A DNA stretch of 31,096 nucleotides from a virus. Lineage: Duplodnaviria > Heunggongvirae > Uroviricota > Caudoviricetes > Peduoviridae. This document shows positions 1 to 20,448 of this stretch, piece after piece (positions within the stretch are counted from its first letter, which is position 1; the number at the start of each line of letters is the position of its first letter). A program made the translations under genes and the position numbers. The stretch lies in the IMG/VR virus record IMGVR_UViG_2974787870_000001. One strand, written 5' to 3'. The notes beneath the pieces are model-generated. The model was not told where the DNA came from, searched no databases, and worked only from the letters and a program-made list of their open reading frames with translations.

Positions 1-2286
1 ATGGCCGTTAAAGCCTCCGGGCGTTTTGTCCCTCCGTCAGCATTTGCCGCAGGCACCGGTAAGGCGTTTACCGGTGCTTATGCATGGAACGCGCCACGCG
101 AGGCTGTCGGGCGCGAAAGACCCCTTACACGTGACGAGATGCGTCAGGTGCAAGGTGTTTTATCCACGATTAACCGCCTGCCTTACTTTTTGCGCTCGCT
201 GTTTACTTCACGCTATGACTACATCCGGCGCAATAAAAGCCCGGTGCACGGGTTTTATTTCCTCACATCCACTTTTCAGCGTCGTTTATGGCCGCGCATT
301 GAGCGTGTGAATCAGCGCCATGAAATGAACACCGACGCGTCGTTACTGTTTCTGGCAGAGCGTGACCACTATGCGCGCCTGCCGGGAATGAATGACAAGG
401 AGCTGAAAAAGTTTGCTGCCCGTATCTCATCGCAGCTTTTCATGATGTATGAGGAACTCAGCGATGCCTGGGTGGATGCGCATGGCGAAAAAGAATCGCT
501 GTTTACGGATGAGGCGCAGGCTCACCTCTATGGTCATGTTGCTGGCGCTGCACGTGCTTTCAATATTTCCCCTCTCTACTGGAAAAAATACCGTAAAGGA
601 CAGATAACCACGAGGCAGGCATATTCTGCCATTGCCCGTCTGTTTAACGATGAGTGGTGGACTCATCAGCTTAAAGGCCAGCGTATGCGCTGGCATGAGG
701 CGTTACTGATTGCTGTCGGGGAGGTCAATAAAGACCGTTCTCCTTATGCCAGTAAACATGCCATTCGTGATGTGCGTGCGCGCCGCCAGGCAAATCTGGA
801 ATTTCTTAAATCGTGTGACCTCGAAAACAGGGAAACCGGCGAGCGCATCGACCTTATCAGTAAGGTGATGGGCAGTATTTCTAATCCTGAAATTCGCCGG
901 ATGGAGCTGATGAACACCATTGCCGGTATTGAGCGTTACGCCGCCGCAGAAGGTGATGTGGGGATGTTTATCACGCTGACCGCGCCGTCAAAGTATCACC
1001 CGACTCGTCAGGTTGGAAAAGGCGAAAGTAAAACCGTTCAGCTTAATCACGGCTGGAATGATGAGGCATTTAATCCAAAGGATGCGCAGCGTTATCTCTG
1101 CCGTATCTGGAGCCTGATGCGCACGGCATTCAAGGATAATGATTTACAGGTCTACGGTTTGCGAGTCGTCGAGCCACACCACGACGGAACGCCGCACTGG
1201 CATATGATGCTTTTTTGTAATCCACGCCAGCGTAACCAAATTATCGAAATCATGCGTCGCTATGCGCTCAAAGAGGATGGCGACGAAAGAGGAGCCGCGC
1301 GAAACCGTTTTCAGGCAAAACACCTTAACCGGGGCGGTGCTGCGGGATATATCGCGAAATACATTTCAAAAAATATCGACGGATATGCACTGGATGGTCA
1401 GCTCGATAACGATACCGGCAGACCGCTGAAAGACACTGCCGCGGCTGTTACCGCATGGGCGTCAACGTGGCGCATCCCGCAATTTAAAACGGTTGGTCTG
1501 CCGACAATGGGGGCTTACCGTGAACTACGCAAATTGCCGCGCGGCGTCAGCATTGCTGATGAGTTTGACGAGCGCGTCGAGGCTGCACGCGCCGCCGCAG
1601 ACAGTGGTGATTTTGCGCTGTATATCAGCGCGCAGGGTGGGGCAAATGTCCCGCGCGATTGTCAGACTGTCAGGGTCGCCCGTAGTCCGTCGGATGAAGT
1701 TAACGAGTACGAGGAAGAAGTCGAGAGAGTGGTCGGCATTTACGCGCCGCATCTCGGCGCGCGTCATATTCATATCACCAGAACGACGGACTGGCGCATT
1801 GTTCCGAAAGTGCCGGTCGTTGAGCCTTTGACTTTAAAAAGCGGCATCGCCGCGCCTCGGAGTCCTGTCAATAACTGTGGAAAGCTCACCGGTGGTGATA
1901 CTTCGTTACCGGCTCCCACGCCTTCTGAGCACGCCGCAGCAGTGCTTAATCTGGTTGATGACGGTGTTATCGAATGGAATGACCCGGAGGTCGTGAGGGC
2001 GCTCAGGGGCGCATTAAAACACGACCGGAGAACGCCAAACCGTCAGCAAAGAAACGGAAGCCCGTTAAAACCGCATGAAATTGCACCATCGGCCAGACTG
2101 ACCCGGTCTGAACGATTGCAAATCACCCGTATCCGCGTTGACCTTGCTCAGAACGGTATCAGGCCGCAGCGATGGGAGCTTGAGGCGCTGGTGCGTGGCG
2201 CGACCGTAAATTATGACGGGAAAAAATTCACGTATCCGGTCGCTGATGAGTGGCCGGGATTCTCAACAGTAATGGAGTGGACATGA
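1..2286 (+). CDS. A: Replication initiation protein GpA (rolling-circle HUH endonuclease)
   Basis: 761-aa ORF; HUH-type motif 'PHWHMMLF' and paired-tyrosine motif 'YIAKYISK'; N-terminus and length match my recollection of P2 GpA. Confidence 0.93.
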   Translation: MAVKASGRFVPPSAFAAGTGKAFTGAYAWNAPREAVGRERPLTRDEMRQVQGVLSTINRLPYFLRSLFTSRYDYIRRNKSPVHGFYFLTSTFQRRLWPRIERVNQRHEMNTDASLLFLAERDHYARLPGMNDKELKKFAARISSQLFMMYEELSDAWVDAHGEKESLFTDEAQAHLYGHVAGAARAFNISPLYWKKYRKGQITTRQAYSAIARLFNDEWWTHQLKGQRMRWHEALLIAVGEVNKDRSPYASKHAIRDVRARRQANLEFLKSCDLENRETGERIDLISKVMGSISNPEIRRMELMNTIAGIERYAAAEGDVGMFITLTAPSKYHPTRQVGKGESKTVQLNHGWNDEAFNPKDAQRYLCRIWSLMRTAFKDNDLQVYGLRVVEPHHDGTPHWHMMLFCNPRQRNQIIEIMRRYALKEDGDERGAARNRFQAKHLNRGGAAGYIAKYISKNIDGYALDGQLDNDTGRPLKDTAAAVTAWASTWRIPQFKTVGLPTMGAYRELRKLPRGVSIADEFDERVEAARAAADSGDFALYISAQGGANVPRDCQTVRVARSPSDEVNEYEEEVERVVGIYAPHLGARHIHITRTTDWRIVPKVPVVEPLTLKSGIAAPRSPVNNCGKLTGGDTSLPAPTPSEHAAAVLNLVDDGVIEWNDPEVVRALRGALKHDRRTPNRQQRNGSPLKPHEIAPSARLTRSERLQITRIRVDLAQNGIRPQRWELEALVRGATVNYDGKKFTYPVADEWPGFSTVMEWT
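1851..1875 (+). promoter_or_regulatory. Candidate ori nick site inside gene A (cgcgcctcggagtcctgtcaataac)
   Basis: In P2 the origin lies within the A coding sequence and is nicked by GpA; this stretch matches my recollection of the published nick-site sequence. Recalled, not computed. Confidence 0.45.
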
Positions 2287-2738
2287 TGGCAAAAATTCAC
2301 GAGGTAAAGCTGCACGCAAAATATTTTGACCTTGTGCTGGAAGGAAAGAAACGCGCAGAGTTTCGGAAAAATGACCGTAATTATGAGCGCGGGGACACGT
2401 TGATTTTGCATGAATGGGTGCAGGGTGTGTATACGGGGCGAAAGGTTGAAGCCCGGATAACAGATGTTACTGACCTGTCAGACTGGCTGGAAGATTATGT
2501 CTTGCTAAGTATTGAGCTGCTTAATACAGGCGCATATGAGATTGTGAACTGGAAAGAACTTAGTGAGCGTGGTCTGGTATTCAGAATTAATCATGAAATT
2601 ATGCATCAGCTCGGCCTTGCTGTTATGTATGCACCAGAGACGGGGATGTCTGGCGGGGCAATGGTTGCCACGGATGGAGCATGGAACTATTCAGATGAAC
2701 AGATTGAGCGTGCACAGCAAAACGGGTGGCTTGGATAA
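2283..2738 (+). CDS. Hypothetical protein, N-terminal ASCH/PUA-like (DUF3850-like) domain
   Basis: ATG at 2283 overlaps the A stop (ATGA); 151 aa; N-terminal 'KIHEVKLHAKYFDLVLEGKKRAEFRKNDRNYERGDTLILHEW' resembles small ASCH-fold proteins; C-terminal half unassigned. Confidence 0.6.
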   Translation: MMAKIHEVKLHAKYFDLVLEGKKRAEFRKNDRNYERGDTLILHEWVQGVYTGRKVEARITDVTDLSDWLEDYVLLSIELLNTGAYEIVNWKELSERGLVFRINHEIMHQLGLAVMYAPETGMSGGAMVATDGAWNYSDEQIERAQQNGWLG

Positions 2739-2944
2739 TGCACAGAATACCAGGCGAGATACCGCACCATAAAACTAAAAATATCAAGCTGATGGCTATT
2801 GTTCAGCGTTTACAGCGGATTATGGTCAACGAAAATCTGACGCCTGACGAGCTGGTCGGGTGTGCCGAAATAGTCCGGGATAATTACGGGCGGCTTAATT
2901 ATATCCGTCAGTCCAGAGTTGCTCCACCGCCACGCAGACTATAG
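2738..2944 (+). CDS. Small hypothetical protein (68 aa)
   Basis: ATG at 2738 overlaps the upstream stop (TAATG), suggesting translational coupling; no recognisable motif. Confidence 0.4.
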   Translation: MHRIPGEIPHHKTKNIKLMAIVQRLQRIMVNENLTPDELVGCAEIVRDNYGRLNYIRQSRVAPPPRRL

Positions 2945-3118
2945 AAAACGCCGTCAGTCTTGAAACTTGTTTTCAGGGCTGGCGGGGTTGAACAACGAGC
3001 ATCGCGAGGCGTTAGTGGTATTGGAACCAATGAGAAAACAAAAAACTCAACGCCTCCCCTCATGTTTGATGGTATGGTCTTGTTTTTAGGTAATGAAGCT
3101 TTATTCGGGTGACGTGCC

Positions 3119-3124
3119 TAATAT
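3119..3124 (+). promoter_or_regulatory. Candidate -10 element (TAATAT) for the AT-rich cargo gene
   Basis: Near-consensus -10 hexamer about 36 nt upstream of the 3160 start; no convincing -35. Confidence 0.25.
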
Positions 3125-3159
3125 AGCTTTCTGCATGACGTTAGAATGATGATGAGATC

Positions 3160-3762
3160 ATGTTATTAATGAATGAGAAAAAAAGACAAAAATATCTAAA
3201 GATAATGTTTGAATGTCAAAAGCGACTTGAAACACTTCATGCTTTATCATCTGGAAGGATTGATGGCATTTATTTTCAAGTGTTAATTGAAATGGAGGCG
3301 TTGCAGCTTAGGAAGCTACTAGAGCTCATTGCATTTTCATCTCTAATTTCACATGAAAAAGCATACGAGAAGGTTACAAAGAAGATTGATGGTGTATGGA
3401 AGGCGAAGAATATATTTAAAGAGTTGGAAAAGATAAACCCTAACTTTTATCCAGTACCAATATCAGGAGTAACCAAAACGGGCTGGACGAAACTAACGGG
3501 AGGTTTTTTGACGAAAAAACAGTTTATCAAGCTATATGATGAATGCTCAAAACATATTCACGTAAGGAACCCATATCGGGTTAGGGAAAACTCGCTGGGG
3601 TTTCATAAAAAAGTTCCAGAGTATTTATCAAGAATTGAAACTCTACTGTTAAAGCACATTGTTTCTCTTGCCGGGAATGAAGAACTTCTTCTTGTAGATG
3701 TGCCTCATTATGAAGACTCTGTAACAGCTATAAAAATGAGCCACCTCGTTAAAATGGGGTGA
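3160..3762 (+). CDS. AT-rich cargo ORF of unknown function (200 aa) in the tin/old slot; candidate defence or exclusion protein
   Basis: Uninterrupted 200-aa ORF; visibly far more AT-rich than the flanking phage genes; sits between A and cos where P2 carries tin and old; followed by its own hairpin. Confidence 0.65.
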   Translation: MLLMNEKKRQKYLKIMFECQKRLETLHALSSGRIDGIYFQVLIEMEALQLRKLLELIAFSSLISHEKAYEKVTKKIDGVWKAKNIFKELEKINPNFYPVPISGVTKTGWTKLTGGFLTKKQFIKLYDECSKHIHVRNPYRVRENSLGFHKKVPEYLSRIETLLLKHIVSLAGNEELLLVDVPHYEDSVTAIKMSHLVKMG

Positions 3763-3798
3763 AAAATAAGCAATAAATAGTCGATTCTAGTGAACGGT

Positions 3799-3822
3799 CG
3801 GCTATTTTTAGCCGGATTTTTA
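3799..3822 (+). terminator. Weak intrinsic terminator after the 200-aa cargo ORF
   Basis: CGGCT-ATTTTT-AGCCG hairpin followed by a T-rich tract (GATTTTTAT). Confidence 0.4.
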
Positions 3823-3980
3823 TACTGTTTCCCCTTAATTACAGTCGTTTCTATTCATGCATGTGCTATTGCATCGAATTGCATGCGTTTTCATCCCCTG
3901 TTGCTTATGAGCGTTGTCAGTGCTGGCGCATTCTCGGTATGTTCATGCAACTGCATTAAAATCGCCCCATGAAGCGGGCG

Positions 3981-3999
3981 GGCGAGGCGGGGAAAGCAC
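3981..3999. other. cos: cos site core (19-nt cohesive-end sequence GGCGAGGCGGGGAAAGCAC)
   Basis: Sequence read directly; matches my recollection of the P2/186 19-nt cohesive end; lies in a GC-rich noncoding stretch next to the 3' end of Q, as in P2. Confidence 0.75.
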
Positions 4000-4141
4000 T
4001 GCGCGCTGGCGGTGGTGCTGATTTTATTTTTTCAGCGTCTCAGCGCGTCGTAATGGCGTTTAGATTGTGCGCCGGGGCGCTGGTGTGTCTGCGGGCTGTT
4101 TTGTGCGGTGGTGAGTGTGTGAGGGCGTGATGACGGGGTGT

Positions 4142-15841: not shown

Positions 15842-18577
15842 ATGAGCACGAAATTTAAAACCGTTATCACTACTGCCGGAGCCGCAAAGCTGGCAGCCGC
15901 CACTGTCCCCGGCGGGAAAAAAGTAACCCTGTCTGCAATGGCCGTGGGTGACGGTAATGGCAAATTGCCGGTGCCGGATGCCGGTCAGACGAAACTGGTG
16001 CATGAGGTCTGGCGTCACGCTCTGAATAAAGTCAGCGTGGATAACAAGAATAAAAACTATATCGTGGCTGAACTGGTTGTACCGCCCGAAGTGGGCGGAT
16101 TCTGGATGCGTGAGCTTGGTCTGTATGACGATGCCGGAACACTGATTGCGGTCGCCAACATGGCAGAAAGCTATAAGCCTGAACTCGCTGAAGGCTCCGG
16201 GCGTGCGCAGACCTGCCGCATGGTTATTATTGTCAGTAACGTGGCGTCCGTTGAGCTGAGTATTGATGCCAGCACAGTGATGGCGACGCAGGATTACGTC
16301 GATGACAAAATCGCAGAACATGAGCAGTCCCGCCGCCATCCTGACGCCACGCTGACAGAAAAAGGTTTTACCCAGTTAAGCAGCGCAACAAACAGCACCA
16401 GTGAAAAACTGGCGGCAACGCCAAAAGCGGTCAAGGCTGCGAATGACAACGCAAATTCACGTCTGGCGAAAAATCAGAACGGTGCAGATATCCAGGATAA
16501 ATCAGCTTTTCTGGACAATGTTGGCGTTACCAGCCTGACGTTTATGAAAAACAACGGCGAAATGCCGGTTGATGCTGATCTGAATACATTTGGTCCAGTT
16601 AAGGCTTATCTGGGGATCTGGTCTAAAGCTACCTCAACTAACGCAACACTGGAGAAAAATTTCCCGGAAGATAATGCTGTCGGTGTGCTTGAGGTTTTTG
16701 CTGCCGGCAATTTTGCAGGCACGCAACGCTTTATCACGAGAGACGGCAATGTATACATGCGTAAACTCGCCAATAAGTGGAATGGTACTGATGGTCCATG
16801 GGGCGTATGGCGTCACACTCAATCAGCTACCCGCCCTTTGAGTACGACTATAGACCTGAATACGCTTGGAGCCGCCGAACATCTTGGTTTATGGCGTAAC
16901 AGTAGCTCGGCTATAGCTTCATATGAACGCAATTATCCAGAGGAAGGCGGCTTTGCTCAAGGGACGCTTGAGATCCTCGAAGGCGGGAATTATGGAAGAA
17001 CGCAACGTTATACCACTCGCCGTGGAAATATGTACGTCCGCTGCCTTGCGGCAAGCTGGGATGCATCAAATCCGCAGTGGGAACCGTGGTTAAGAGTCGG
17101 TCATCAGTCAGAGAGTCGTTATTACGAAGGTGATTTAAATGTTCTAACCGACCCCGGTATTTACAGTGTTACAGGAAAGGCAACAAACGGTCCGATGCTG
17201 GACACCGTTGGCGCGACACTACTTGGGATACTGGAAGTAATCAGACGTTTTGATGGTGTGTCTGTCTGGCAGCGTTACACAACCACAGGGAAATCAGAAA
17301 CCACACAGGGACGCACTTTTGAGCGCGTCTACGCCGGGAGCAAATGGACCGAATGGCGAGAAGTATATAACTCCTTTTCGTTGCCTCTGAATCTGGGCAT
17401 CGGTGGCGCAGTGGCAAAACTATCCATTCTGGACTGGCAGACCTACGATTTTGTGCCGGGCAGTCTGATAACCGTTCGGCTTGATAATATGACCAACATT
17501 CCCGACGGTATGGACTGGGGCGTCATTGATGGCAACCTGATAAACATCGCAGTTGGTCCGAGTGATGATTCCGGTACGGGGCGCTCAATGCATGTATGGC
17601 GCAGCACTGTAAGTAAAGCCAACTACCGCTTTTTTATGGTGCGCATTTCAGGAAATCCGGGAAGCCGCACGATCACAACAAGACGAGTACCAATCATTGA
17701 CGAAGCCCAGACATGGGGCGCGAAACAGACATTCAGTGCTGGCCTTTCTGGTGAACTGTCCGGCAATGCGGCGACAGCAACAAAGCTGAAAACAGCCCGT
17801 AAAATTAATAACGTTTCGTTTGATGGAACATCAGATATTAACCTGACGCCGAAAAATATTGGTGCATTTGCTTCAGGAAAAACAGGAGACACCGTTGCGA
17901 ATGATAAAGCCGTTGGATGGAACTGGAGTAGCGGAGCCTATAACGCAACTATTGGTGGGGCATCAACGTTAATTCTTCATTTTAATATCGGTGAAGGAAG
18001 TTGTCCCGCCGCCCAGTTTCGCGTTAATTATAAGAACGGTGGTATTTTTTATCGTTCTGCTCGTGACGGTTACGGATTCGAGGCTGACTGGTCTGAGTTT
18101 TATACCACAACGCGAAAACCTACAGCGGGAGATGTCGGTGCACTGCCGTTATCTGGTGGTCAATTGAATGGTGCTCTGGGTATAGGAACATCCAGTGCTC
18201 TTGGCGGTAATTCGATTGTTTTGGGTGATAATGACACGGGCTTTAAACAAAATGGTGATGGTAATCTGGATGTTTATGCTAATAGCGTCCATGTTATGCG
18301 CTTTGTCTCCGGAAGCGTTCAAAGTAATAAAACCATAAATATTACGGGGCGTGTTAATCCCTCGGATTACGGTAACTTTGATTCCCGCTATGTGAGAGAT
18401 GTCAGACTTGGCACACGTGTTGTCCAGACCATGCAGAAAGGGGTGATGTATGAGAAAGCAGGGCACGTAATTACCGGGCTTGGTATTGTCGGTGAAGTCG
18501 ATGGTGATGACCCCGCAGTATTCAGACCAATACAAAAATACATCAATGGCACATGGTATAACGTCGCACAGGTGTAA
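15842..18577 (+). CDS. H: Tail fibre protein GpH (conserved N-terminus, mosaic C-terminus with three tandem domain repeats)
   Basis: 911 aa; N-terminus 'MSTKFKTVITTAGAAKLAAA' as I recall for P2 H; GC drops in the distal half. Confidence 0.9.
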   Translation: MSTKFKTVITTAGAAKLAAATVPGGKKVTLSAMAVGDGNGKLPVPDAGQTKLVHEVWRHALNKVSVDNKNKNYIVAELVVPPEVGGFWMRELGLYDDAGTLIAVANMAESYKPELAEGSGRAQTCRMVIIVSNVASVELSIDASTVMATQDYVDDKIAEHEQSRRHPDATLTEKGFTQLSSATNSTSEKLAATPKAVKAANDNANSRLAKNQNGADIQDKSAFLDNVGVTSLTFMKNNGEMPVDADLNTFGPVKAYLGIWSKATSTNATLEKNFPEDNAVGVLEVFAAGNFAGTQRFITRDGNVYMRKLANKWNGTDGPWGVWRHTQSATRPLSTTIDLNTLGAAEHLGLWRNSSSAIASYERNYPEEGGFAQGTLEILEGGNYGRTQRYTTRRGNMYVRCLAASWDASNPQWEPWLRVGHQSESRYYEGDLNVLTDPGIYSVTGKATNGPMLDTVGATLLGILEVIRRFDGVSVWQRYTTTGKSETTQGRTFERVYAGSKWTEWREVYNSFSLPLNLGIGGAVAKLSILDWQTYDFVPGSLITVRLDNMTNIPDGMDWGVIDGNLINIAVGPSDDSGTGRSMHVWRSTVSKANYRFFMVRISGNPGSRTITTRRVPIIDEAQTWGAKQTFSAGLSGELSGNAATATKLKTARKINNVSFDGTSDINLTPKNIGAFASGKTGDTVANDKAVGWNWSSGAYNATIGGASTLILHFNIGEGSCPAAQFRVNYKNGGIFYRSARDGYGFEADWSEFYTTTRKPTAGDVGALPLSGGQLNGALGIGTSSALGGNSIVLGDNDTGFKQNGDGNLDVYANSVHVMRFVSGSVQSNKTINITGRVNPSDYGNFDSRYVRDVRLGTRVVQTMQKGVMYEKAGHVITGLGIVGEVDGDDPAVFRPIQKYINGTWYNVAQV

Positions 18578-18580
18578 TTT

Positions 18581-19108
18581 ATGCAGCATTTAAAAAATAT
18601 TACTGCGGGTAATCCAAAAACTGTTGCCCAATATCAACTGACAAAAAATTTTGATGTTATCTGGTTATGGTCCGAAGAGGGAAAAAACTGGTATGAGGAA
18701 GTAAGTAATTTTCAGGAAGACACGATAAAGATTGTTTACGACGAGAATAATATAATTGTCGGCATCACCAGAGATGCTTCAACGCTCAACCCTGAAGGTT
18801 TTAGCGTTGTCGAGGTTCCTGATATTACCGCCAACCGACGTGCTGATGACTCAGGTAAATGGATGTTTAAGGATGGTGCCGTGATTAAGCGGATTTATAC
18901 GGCAGACGAACAGCAACAACAGGCAGAATCACAAAAGGCCGCGTTACTTTCCGAAACCGAATCCGTGATTTTGCCGCTGGAGCGCGCTGTCAGGCTGAAT
19001 ATGGCAACAGATGAGGAGCGCAGTCGACTGGAAGCATGGGAACGCTACAGCGTTCTGGTCAGTCGTGTGGATCCTGCAAATCCTGAATGGCCGGAAATGC
19101 CGCAATAA
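18581..19108 (+). CDS. G: Tail fibre assembly chaperone GpG
   Basis: 175-aa ORF immediately after H; synteny. Confidence 0.82.
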
Positions 19109-19326
19109 GTTGTATGAGCTCTGGTGGGAGCTTACATATCTATGGCACAGAGTAAAGCCTAATCTGACAGTCCGCTCTGTGCTAGGAGCGGACATTGTTG
19201 CCATCTATCTGCATAAATCTGTGGGGAGCTGCTCACTTGTGGGGAATGAGTCCTCAACTGTTTGCGTTTATAAACACAATCCTTTAGATTTTCTCCTACT
19301 ATCTACTAAAATTTTATCTAGTGAAA

Positions 19327-20448
19327 ATGCCCAATAATCATATGTATGCAAGTCTACTGTCTTACAAAAACTTAAAGATGGCACATCAAGGAAGTAACTT
19401 ACGGTCTATTACTGAGTTTTCTCTCTATTCAGATAGTCAACCAATTGGGGCGGTTGATGATGATTCAGTTTATTGTTTTCTGAATATGCTACCCAGGATA
19501 ACCAAACAATCCACCGTTGCATCTTCAATTACAGTGCGCACAAAGTGGTATAGTGACTTAAATAATATGATTCTTTCTAGTTCTCAGAGTCATACAAAGG
19601 ATTATCATGGTGGATGGTATAATGATGAAATAGCTGCGCTTTCAAGTTTACTGCTTGGTGTCCGTTTTCATGCTGGGTCAATTACTCGTCACTATGATTA
19701 CTACACAGGTGATTTCGGAAGGATCCAAGCGGAGAGTTCTTTTCCTCCCGTTTTAGAGTTTAAACATAACAAACCTATAGTTCCTAATGCTATCAAAGAA
19801 ATTGATATAACTAACCTTAAAGAGCTTAACAATTTACATCTCTTAAGTGAAAAGAATTTCAACCATTTAATTAGAGCAGCCAGAAGCTATCAAAATGCAT
19901 TATGGATATGCGAGTCATCTCCAAATATGAGTTGGCTATTGATGGTGTCAGCCCTAGAATGTGCGGCTAATCAATGGGCAAAATCCAATGCGTCTAAAGA
20001 AGAAAGATTTAAACATGCCAAGCCTGAATTATATGAAAAATTAGATACCAATGAATTTAGACATTTAATCTCTATTATTGCTAATGAGTTTAAAGATTCA
20101 TTTGGGGCGACAAAGAAGTTTGTGGATTTCTGCCTGTATTTCCTTCCAGATGAACCTCAAGTGAGGCCAAAAGTAGGAAGAATTGATTGGGGAAAAGAAT
20201 CGCTATCAACAACTTTTAAAAAAATATATAACTACCGTTCTAAGGCATTGCATGGAGGACAACCATTTCCTGAGCCGATGTGTTCCTATCCTGAAGTATG
20301 GGATGGGTATATTGCTGAACGAGCGAGAGCATGTTCAACCTTAGGTGGAACGTGGTTGAATGAAGATGTGCCAATTAATTTAAATACATTCAACTTTATG
20401 ACCCATTCCATTTTGAATAAGTGGTGGCAATCTTTATTACCAAGTTAA
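19327..20448 (+). CDS. AT-rich cargo ORF of unknown function (about 373 aa) in the Z/fun slot; candidate defence or abortive-infection protein
   Basis: Long ORF in a strongly AT-rich island between G and FI; start uncertain (GTG 19321, ATG 19327, 19344 or 19378; none has a clear ribosome-binding site); Rx4H motif (RSKALH) near the C-terminus; perfect hairpin at its stop. Confidence 0.65.
   Translation: MPNNHMYASLLSYKNLKMAHQGSNLRSITEFSLYSDSQPIGAVDDDSVYCFLNMLPRITKQSTVASSITVRTKWYSDLNNMILSSSQSHTKDYHGGWYNDEIAALSSLLLGVRFHAGSITRHYDYYTGDFGRIQAESSFPPVLEFKHNKPIVPNAIKEIDITNLKELNNLHLLSEKNFNHLIRAARSYQNALWICESSPNMSWLLMVSALECAANQWAKSNASKEERFKHAKPELYEKLDTNEFRHLISIIANEFKDSFGATKKFVDFCLYFLPDEPQVRPKVGRIDWGKESLSTTFKKIYNYRSKALHGGQPFPEPMCSYPEVWDGYIAERARACSTLGGTWLNEDVPINLNTFNFMTHSILNKWWQSLLPS

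Follow-up and report, generated by a model that had tools for sequence, protein, structure and literature searches.

The closest described counterparts of the element analyzed here are the knobs of R-type pyocin fibres. The R1 and R2 pyocin fibre (PA0620; structures 6CL5, 6CL6 and 6CU2) has two such domains, Knob1 and Knob2, with an iron-binding shaft and then a lectin-like foot beyond them. The knob is a domain of about 90 amino acids (aa), in which long loops connect the five or six strands of an antiparallel sheet. It has already been catalogued: it figures among the listed mobile modules of fibres, the "Pyocin knob" of RBPseg being a mobile pseudo-domain in six tail-fibre classes (PMC12143355), and its name is attached in GenBank to near-identical relatives of the protein described below. 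The patchwork origin of this type of phage fibre is also known and was published in 2008. The gpH fibre of phage L-413C was reported to be a mosaic with the same boundaries as found here (Garcia et al., 2008, as relayed by PMC7460101); in that article's summary of L-413C gpH, the middle modules are not called knobs. A literature search retrieved no explicit account of knobs in P2-like gpH.

The DNA analyzed here, hereafter the window, comprises 31,096 nucleotides (nt) of a virus of the Peduoviridae (IMG/VR record IMGVR_UViG_2974787870_000001) and represents the nearly whole genome of a P2-like phage (Peduovirus). Its tail fibre gene H, an open reading frame (ORF) of 911 codons, is encoded at positions 15842-18577 on the plus strand. 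In its product, residues 240-522 consist of three knob domains of the kind known from R-type pyocin fibres, arranged in tandem.

Three knob domains in the tail fibre protein H

The three units, all encoded on the plus strand, are as follows.

16559-16834, plus strand: knob 1 (K1), H residues 240-331, similar to K2; in the AlphaFold2 (AF2) model it has a predicted local distance difference test score (pLDDT) of about 70-86 and five main strands, and it is part of the model that matches pyocin and phage knob proteins
16835-17113, plus strand: knob 2 (K2), H residues 332-424, similar to K1; its AF2 strand pattern lies 91-93 residues on from that of K1
17114-17407, plus strand: knob 3 (K3), a diverged copy, H residues 425-522

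The original prediction, which had been made from the sequence alone, proposed three tandem copies of a domain of about 80 aa at positions 16560-17350, equivalent to residues 240-503. The presence of three units was borne out. Their size had been underestimated, because the repeat period is 92-93 aa and the envelopes found with a hidden Markov model (HMM) have a length of 87-91 aa. The comparison of H with itself, which had been suggested as a check, gave a divided result. Self-BLASTP revealed nothing but the diagonal, and segment-wise Smith-Waterman alignments with shuffled controls were used instead. The alignment of K1 (residues 231-330) with K2 (residues 331-425) had a score of 180, compared to 26.5 +/- 5.1 for the shuffled sequences (z = 30), and none of the 500 shuffles reached 180. 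The profile-profile comparison of the two units with hhalign resulted in an E value of 7.9e-27. K3, in contrast, was not significantly similar to K1 and K2 in pairwise alignments (z = 0.1 and 1.8, respectively), and hhalign detected it weakly, albeit in register (P of about 5e-4 to 1e-3, probability 22-33%).

Based on these values it could be argued that K1 and K2 are the sole true repeats, and that K3 is an unrelated beta-rich region that has some residues in common with them by chance. However, an end-to-end alignment of K3 with K1 and K2 retains the D-L-N, G, (L/V)E(V/I), QxYTT and WxxW positions. In addition, a profile that had been built without K3 recognized it. This profile was seeded with K1 and K2 and, after one iteration, comprised 136 domains from 91 unrelated representatives, all 34 representatives with a K3-like segment having been excluded. 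It matched residues 431-510 of H with 25.3 bits, while 2000 shuffled versions of K3 reached 10.0 bits at most. The two-repeat interpretation is thus already disfavoured and, in our view, very improbable; one and the same domain is present three times.

The domain was identified from its predicted structure and from the names of its homologues. In the AF2 model of residues 225-680, the block means of pLDDT over the three units were between 62 and 88, mostly 70-88, and pLDDT fell below 50 after residue 512. Five main strands follow one another in the same order in every unit, with offsets of 88-93 residues between units, so that the units have both the size (87-91 aa) and the strand number (five main strands in the AF2 model) of a pyocin knob. 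Among the PDB entries that Foldseek retrieved with this model was 6CL5, the fibre of the R1 pyocin (E = 7.5e-6, probability 1.00); additional matches were the receptor-binding protein of phi812, the fibre of P68 and the receptor-binding protein of 80alpha. The matches 6EU4, 6CU2, 6CL6, 5EFV, 5NXH, 5M9F and 9EUF (phi812) are the structures with the pyocin Knob fold of Buth et al., or their counterparts in related phages (PMC6116203). Superposition on the solved pyocin knobs ranked above that on unrelated folds. The structure prediction of a single repeat unit, which had likewise been recommended, agreed with this assignment, since K3 modelled alone yielded the same Foldseek list as the model with all three knobs. 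At NCBI, near-identical proteins of Escherichia coli are called "pyocin knob domain-containing protein", as are most homologues that have a name at all, which implies a match to a curated domain model; these names stem from a search that returned partial proteins only. A homologue search with the profile of the unit yielded nothing but short fragments. NCBIfam had no match for H or for any of the units, and no Pfam model covered residues 235-670 of H.

Age, spread and exchange of the knob array

The profile of the knob unit matched 1034 cluster representatives among 1.84 billion at E <= 1e-3, and 210 at E <= 1e-10. Three tandem knobs are the commonest arrangement: among the 147 best sequences, 54 contained three copies, while one, two, four, five and six copies were present in 16, 45, 22, 8 and 2 proteins, respectively, and the median start-to-start spacing was 95 aa. 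A tblastn search of phage genomes revealed the three-knob segment in full length, with 56-60% identity, in distal fibre genes of T-even phages, including T6, RB10 and PST. Residues 226-688 of H are 53% identical to residues 105-562 of T6 gp37, which has three matches to the unit profile in the same layout.

The head-to-tail order of the units and their constant period of 92-93 aa could also have been generated by a recent tandem duplication in this phage lineage, via slippage or unequal crossing-over. At the DNA level, however, the knob array contains no repeat apart from a 17-nt stretch that encodes DLNT(F/L)G and recurs at a spacing of 276 nt, and therefore the duplication is ancient. The units of H are mutually only 19-40% identical (about 37% between K1 and K2, about 19% for K3), whereas K1, K2 and K3 have identities of 66%, 70% and 44% to the respective units in T6 gp37. 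The units are therefore closer to their T6 counterparts than to one another, and the triplication took place before the block was transferred between P2-like and T-even phages. The prevalence of three-copy arrays across hundreds of unrelated proteins also speaks against a recent origin, which we regard as hardly conceivable. Taken together, the sequence comparisons show that the array has been inherited as a block of considerable age, which moves as a unit between unrelated phages.

The array is embedded in a fibre that contains the following further modules and is followed by its chaperone gene.

15842-18577, plus strand: gene H, tail fibre protein, complete ORF; the gene order V-W-J-I-H-G is as in P2
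15842-16294, plus strand: N-terminal baseplate-attachment domain, H residues 1-151 (Pfam PF12571 Phage_tail_fib, E = 8.3e-58)
16349-16474, plus strand: phage tail fibre repeat, H residues 170-211 (Pfam PF03406, E = 1.1e-20); Mu S residues 110-176 are also matched
17408-17776, plus strand: module D4, H residues 523-645 (123 aa), with matches to tail-fibre PHROGs only
17777-18166, plus strand: conserved distal shaft with a gp37_C / Mu S'-like domain, H residues 646-775 (Pfam PF12604 at residues 679-754, E = 7.6e-5)
18167-18574, plus strand: distal tip, H residues 776-911, 53% identical to the C-terminus of P2 gpH; matches the C-terminus of Mu S (5yvq) and S16 gp37 (6f45)
18581-19108, plus strand: gene G, tail fibre assembly chaperone of 175 aa (Pfam PF02413 Caudo_TAP, E = 1.2e-34)

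P2 gpH shares with this protein just residues 1-207 (84.5% identity) and 775-911 (53%). The GC content decreases along the locus, from 0.577 in the baseplate genes V to I to 0.536 in H residues 1-207, 0.492 in residues 226-688, 0.458 in residues 689-911 and 0.453 in G. The GC content at third codon positions declines from 0.59 in the N-terminal domain of H to 0.33-0.40 in its C-terminal third. The expectation that distal H and G are AT-richer than the N-terminus was thus confirmed. A reasonable reading is that the knobs and all distal parts would have been acquired by recombination from AT-richer phages, as proposed for L-413C gpH. Residues 671-768 (positions 17852-18145) are 81% identical to the Mu S/S' fibre chain 8ju3, far above the similarity of the rest of H to Mu, and look like a recent fibre exchange between P2-like and Mu-like phages.

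For the comparison of close relatives, seven H proteins of 909-919 aa were used, and DNA identity was calculated in bins of 90 nt. The N-terminal domain (residues 1-151) is 98-100% identical in the relatives with a long H, 98% identical also with P37, and 85% identical to P2 gpH. The most variable parts are the knobs, with identities of 45-100% for K1, 70-99% for K2 and 47-100% for K3. Residues 646-775 are 98-100% identical, and the same is true for residues 776-911 with the exception of PhiR44_1 (74%). DNA divergence is confined to residues 241-540, where identity to L-413C is as low as 45-50%, and to residues 871-900, while residues 631-870 have a DNA identity of 96-100%. The divergent stretches end near unit borders; they comprise residues 241-450 in P24B2, 241-520 in 569R9, 301-520 in phage 899 and 241-630 in L-413C. 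In the bin for residues 871-900 (positions 18452-18541), five relatives have a DNA identity of 74-81%, and for PhiR44_1 the value is 40%. The position of this patch is comparable to that of the host-range segment HR2 of phage P88.

These patterns show that single knob units have been swapped between closely related P2-like phages, and that the exchanged cassettes are the knob units and the tip patch, most of the distal half being the most conserved part of H. The original prediction of a mosaic distal half therefore holds insofar as H is a mosaic and its non-P2 parts are AT-richer, but exchange among relatives is localized to residues 241-540 and 871-900 and leaves the long stretch between residues 631 and 870 nearly untouched. 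It had also been suggested to compare the C-termini of H and the chaperone G across relatives. G is 90-100% identical to its homologues with the exception of PhiR44_1 (77%), whose tip also differs; tip and chaperone thus co-vary, but in this relative only. Natural recombination swaps single knobs and a tip patch of 30 aa and spares residues 631-870, and chimeric fibres could sensibly be joined at these boundaries. The practical value of the analysis is a domain map with exact unit boundaries for a type of fibre that serves both the diagnosis of plague (L-413C) and fibre engineering.

Possible function of the knobs

By analogy with pyocin and phage structures, each knob level of the assembled trimer would be formed by three chains, with the sheets arranged around the three-fold axis and the loops pointing outward. 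The knobs could serve as rigid globular nodes in the middle of the fibre that help the trimer to fold. Their variable, exposed loops might in addition bind sugars of the lipopolysaccharide (LPS) laterally and with low affinity, and thereby orient the fibre on the cell together with the tip. In the pyocin fibre, diversity is highest in Knob2, which has been proposed as an LPS-binding site, and a knob-like prism of K1F binds sialic acid (PMC6116203). The proposal for the pyocin site is based on the mapping of diversity and on bound ethylene glycol, and the same authors also emphasize the role of knobs in folding (PMC6116203). A role of the knobs in host range, which the original prediction had ascribed to module exchange, is plausible by analogy.

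We are confident that the explanation as a whole is the best one, i.e., that H contains pyocin knobs in an old mobile block, that units have been swapped, that the knobs would act in the trimer and in LPS contact as outlined above, and that the GC content reflects an origin from AT-richer phages. Several points weigh against it. When K3 was modelled alone, AF2 was confident in just one of its five models (83.3 versus 42-52). The best sequence match of the unit profile in the PDB, residues 141-212 of 6CL5, was marginal (E = 0.0056, 19.9 bits), although it is in register and spans the full domain; by the offset from the construct start at residue 323 it corresponds to Knob2. The trimer geometry is assumed, the models being monomers. 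Variable positions are only modestly enriched outside the strands (mean entropy 0.71 versus 0.57, p = 0.03; the values for residues 646-911, which were inflated by fragments with other C-terminal modules, were disregarded). The knobs of vB_YpM_22, which was isolated on Yersinia pestis, are 93-100% identical to those described here, and the knobs of vB_EcoM-720R8, with E. coli as recorded host, are 99-100% identical. Therefore, the recorded host cannot simply be read from knob identity. Lastly, the experimentally proven host-range segment of the related P2-like phage P88 is located near the C-terminus and not in a knob (PMC5285337).

Some of these points would be accommodated if the knobs were purely structural, i.e., spacers and folding nuclei that determine the length and stiffness of the fibre and make no contact with a receptor, their diversity being due to relaxed constraint on loops and to recombination, and host range being set by the tip and the chaperone alone. 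The host-range change of P88 involves a segment of 31 aa near the C-terminus (PMC5285337), and residues 871-900 form a comparable hypervariable patch here. Near-identical knobs in phages that were isolated on Y. pestis or have E. coli as recorded host, and the folding role stressed by Buth et al. (PMC6116203), point in the same direction. However, whole units are replaced in L-413C by alleles with 45-47% identity between flanks with 97-98% identity, which fits retained exchange better than drift, and the diversity of pyocin Knob2 and the sialic acid binding of K1F support ligand contact in homologous folds (PMC6116203). A purely structural role thus has to be taken seriously, but we consider it somewhat doubtful.

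A more far-reaching reading would be that in fibres of the L-413C type the knobs, and not the tip, are the main exchangeable specificity cassettes, each level offering a lateral site for the LPS core. The swaps of K1 and K3 (45-47% identity, compared to 98% for the tip) would then explain discriminations such as the selectivity of L-413C for Y. pestis. We judge this to be unlikely, and favour knobs that would combine a structural function with a putative low-affinity contact to LPS.

Neighbouring loci and comparison with known fibres

Module D4, which follows the knobs, is 48% identical to residues 406-517 of T6 gp37, and 95-100% identical among the relatives with a long H (76% in L-413C). The monomer model gives it a pLDDT of about 30, and it may be an intertwined trimeric segment. 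An off-diagonal BLAST alignment had hinted at D4 as a fourth knob; this candidate was rejected, as an HMM cross-search gave E values of 0.8-7.7, the hhalign probability was below 1%, and the model is unreliable in this region. Farther downstream, residues 679-852 of H have weak gp37-type matches in Pfam.

Several other loci of the window were noted. The small ORF directly downstream of G (19110-19337, plus strand) bears the annotation "ubiquitin-conjugating enzyme H (fragment)" in vB_EcoM-720R8 (locus L003 6269-6496). The name is probably an annotation artefact, because the overlapping ORF of the window has no Pfam match. An ORF of 375 codons (19321-20448, plus strand; GC content 0.366) is located between G and the sheath gene FI, where P2 has Z/fun. 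Pfam, PADLOC and PHROG had no match for it. Its 99 homologues are distributed from Enterobacterales to metagenome-assembled genomes of Chloroflexi, nearly all of them named "hypothetical", with one UniRef name "Apea-like HEPN domain-containing protein". Across 27 members with identities of 28-74%, the RSxALH (Rx4H) motif at R306-H311 does not vary. The protein is a candidate nuclease of the HEPN type, and its gene may be anti-phage cargo. A second low-GC island (2250-3762, plus strand; 0.37-0.41 at positions 3001-4000) follows an ORF of 761 codons at the start of the window. It includes an ORF with DUF3850/ASCH and DUF7415 domains (2250-2738) and an ORF of 200 codons, whose sole match is phrog_13799 (3160-3762).

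The gene has the features of a P2-type H, namely a Phage_tail_fib N-terminus, the position after V-W-J-I, and a Caudo_TAP chaperone gene next to it. The order V-W-J-I-H-G is common to the annotated relatives, and the region is syntenic with P2, L-413C and P24B2. Its protein is 99.8% identical to that of vB_EcoM-720R8, 93.5% to that of P24B2 and 81% to that of L-413C (911 of 913 aa). The DNA of H and G (3267 nt) has identities of 99.7% with Escherichia phage vB_EcoM-720R8 and of 98% with Yersinia phage vB_YpM_22, and it is covered to 73-100% by about 28 phage records, including L-413C.

Compared to the gpH of P2 itself (669 aa), the N-terminal 207 residues, the C-terminal tip, the chaperone G (91% identity) and the gene order are alike, whereas P2 gpH lacks knobs, the unit profile giving no match, and has an unrelated middle part. 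In the case of the gpH of L-413C (913 aa), the similarity is colinear from end to end and includes the non-P2 middle, as expected for a long gpH of about 911 aa. The two proteins have the same architecture, with a P2-like N-terminus of 207 aa and C-terminus of 137 aa around the non-P2 middle, and they are 98% identical in the N-terminal domain and the distal third. They differ in their knob alleles, with identities of 45% for K1, 70% for K2, 47% for K3 and 76% for D4.

The T6-type gp37, the subunit of the distal long tail fibre of T-even phages, contains the same succession of three knobs, and D4 as well. It differs in being joined to gp36, instead of being attached to a P2 baseplate, and in having another tip, the chaperone gp38, and a GC content of 0.42 in the shared block, compared to 0.49 here. 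The staphylococcal receptor-binding proteins (phi11 gp45, 5EFV; phi812, 9EUF; K gp144, 5M9F) and T4 gp34 (5NXH) are unrelated in sequence to the knobs of H (8-18% identity); their context is that of baseplate proteins or proximal fibres, and the staphylococcal proteins serve phages of Gram-positive hosts. Compared to the R1 and R2 pyocins, the fibre described here has three knobs instead of two, and these are followed by the 123-aa module D4 and a tip of the gp37 / Mu S type, the sequence similarity of the knobs themselves being marginal.

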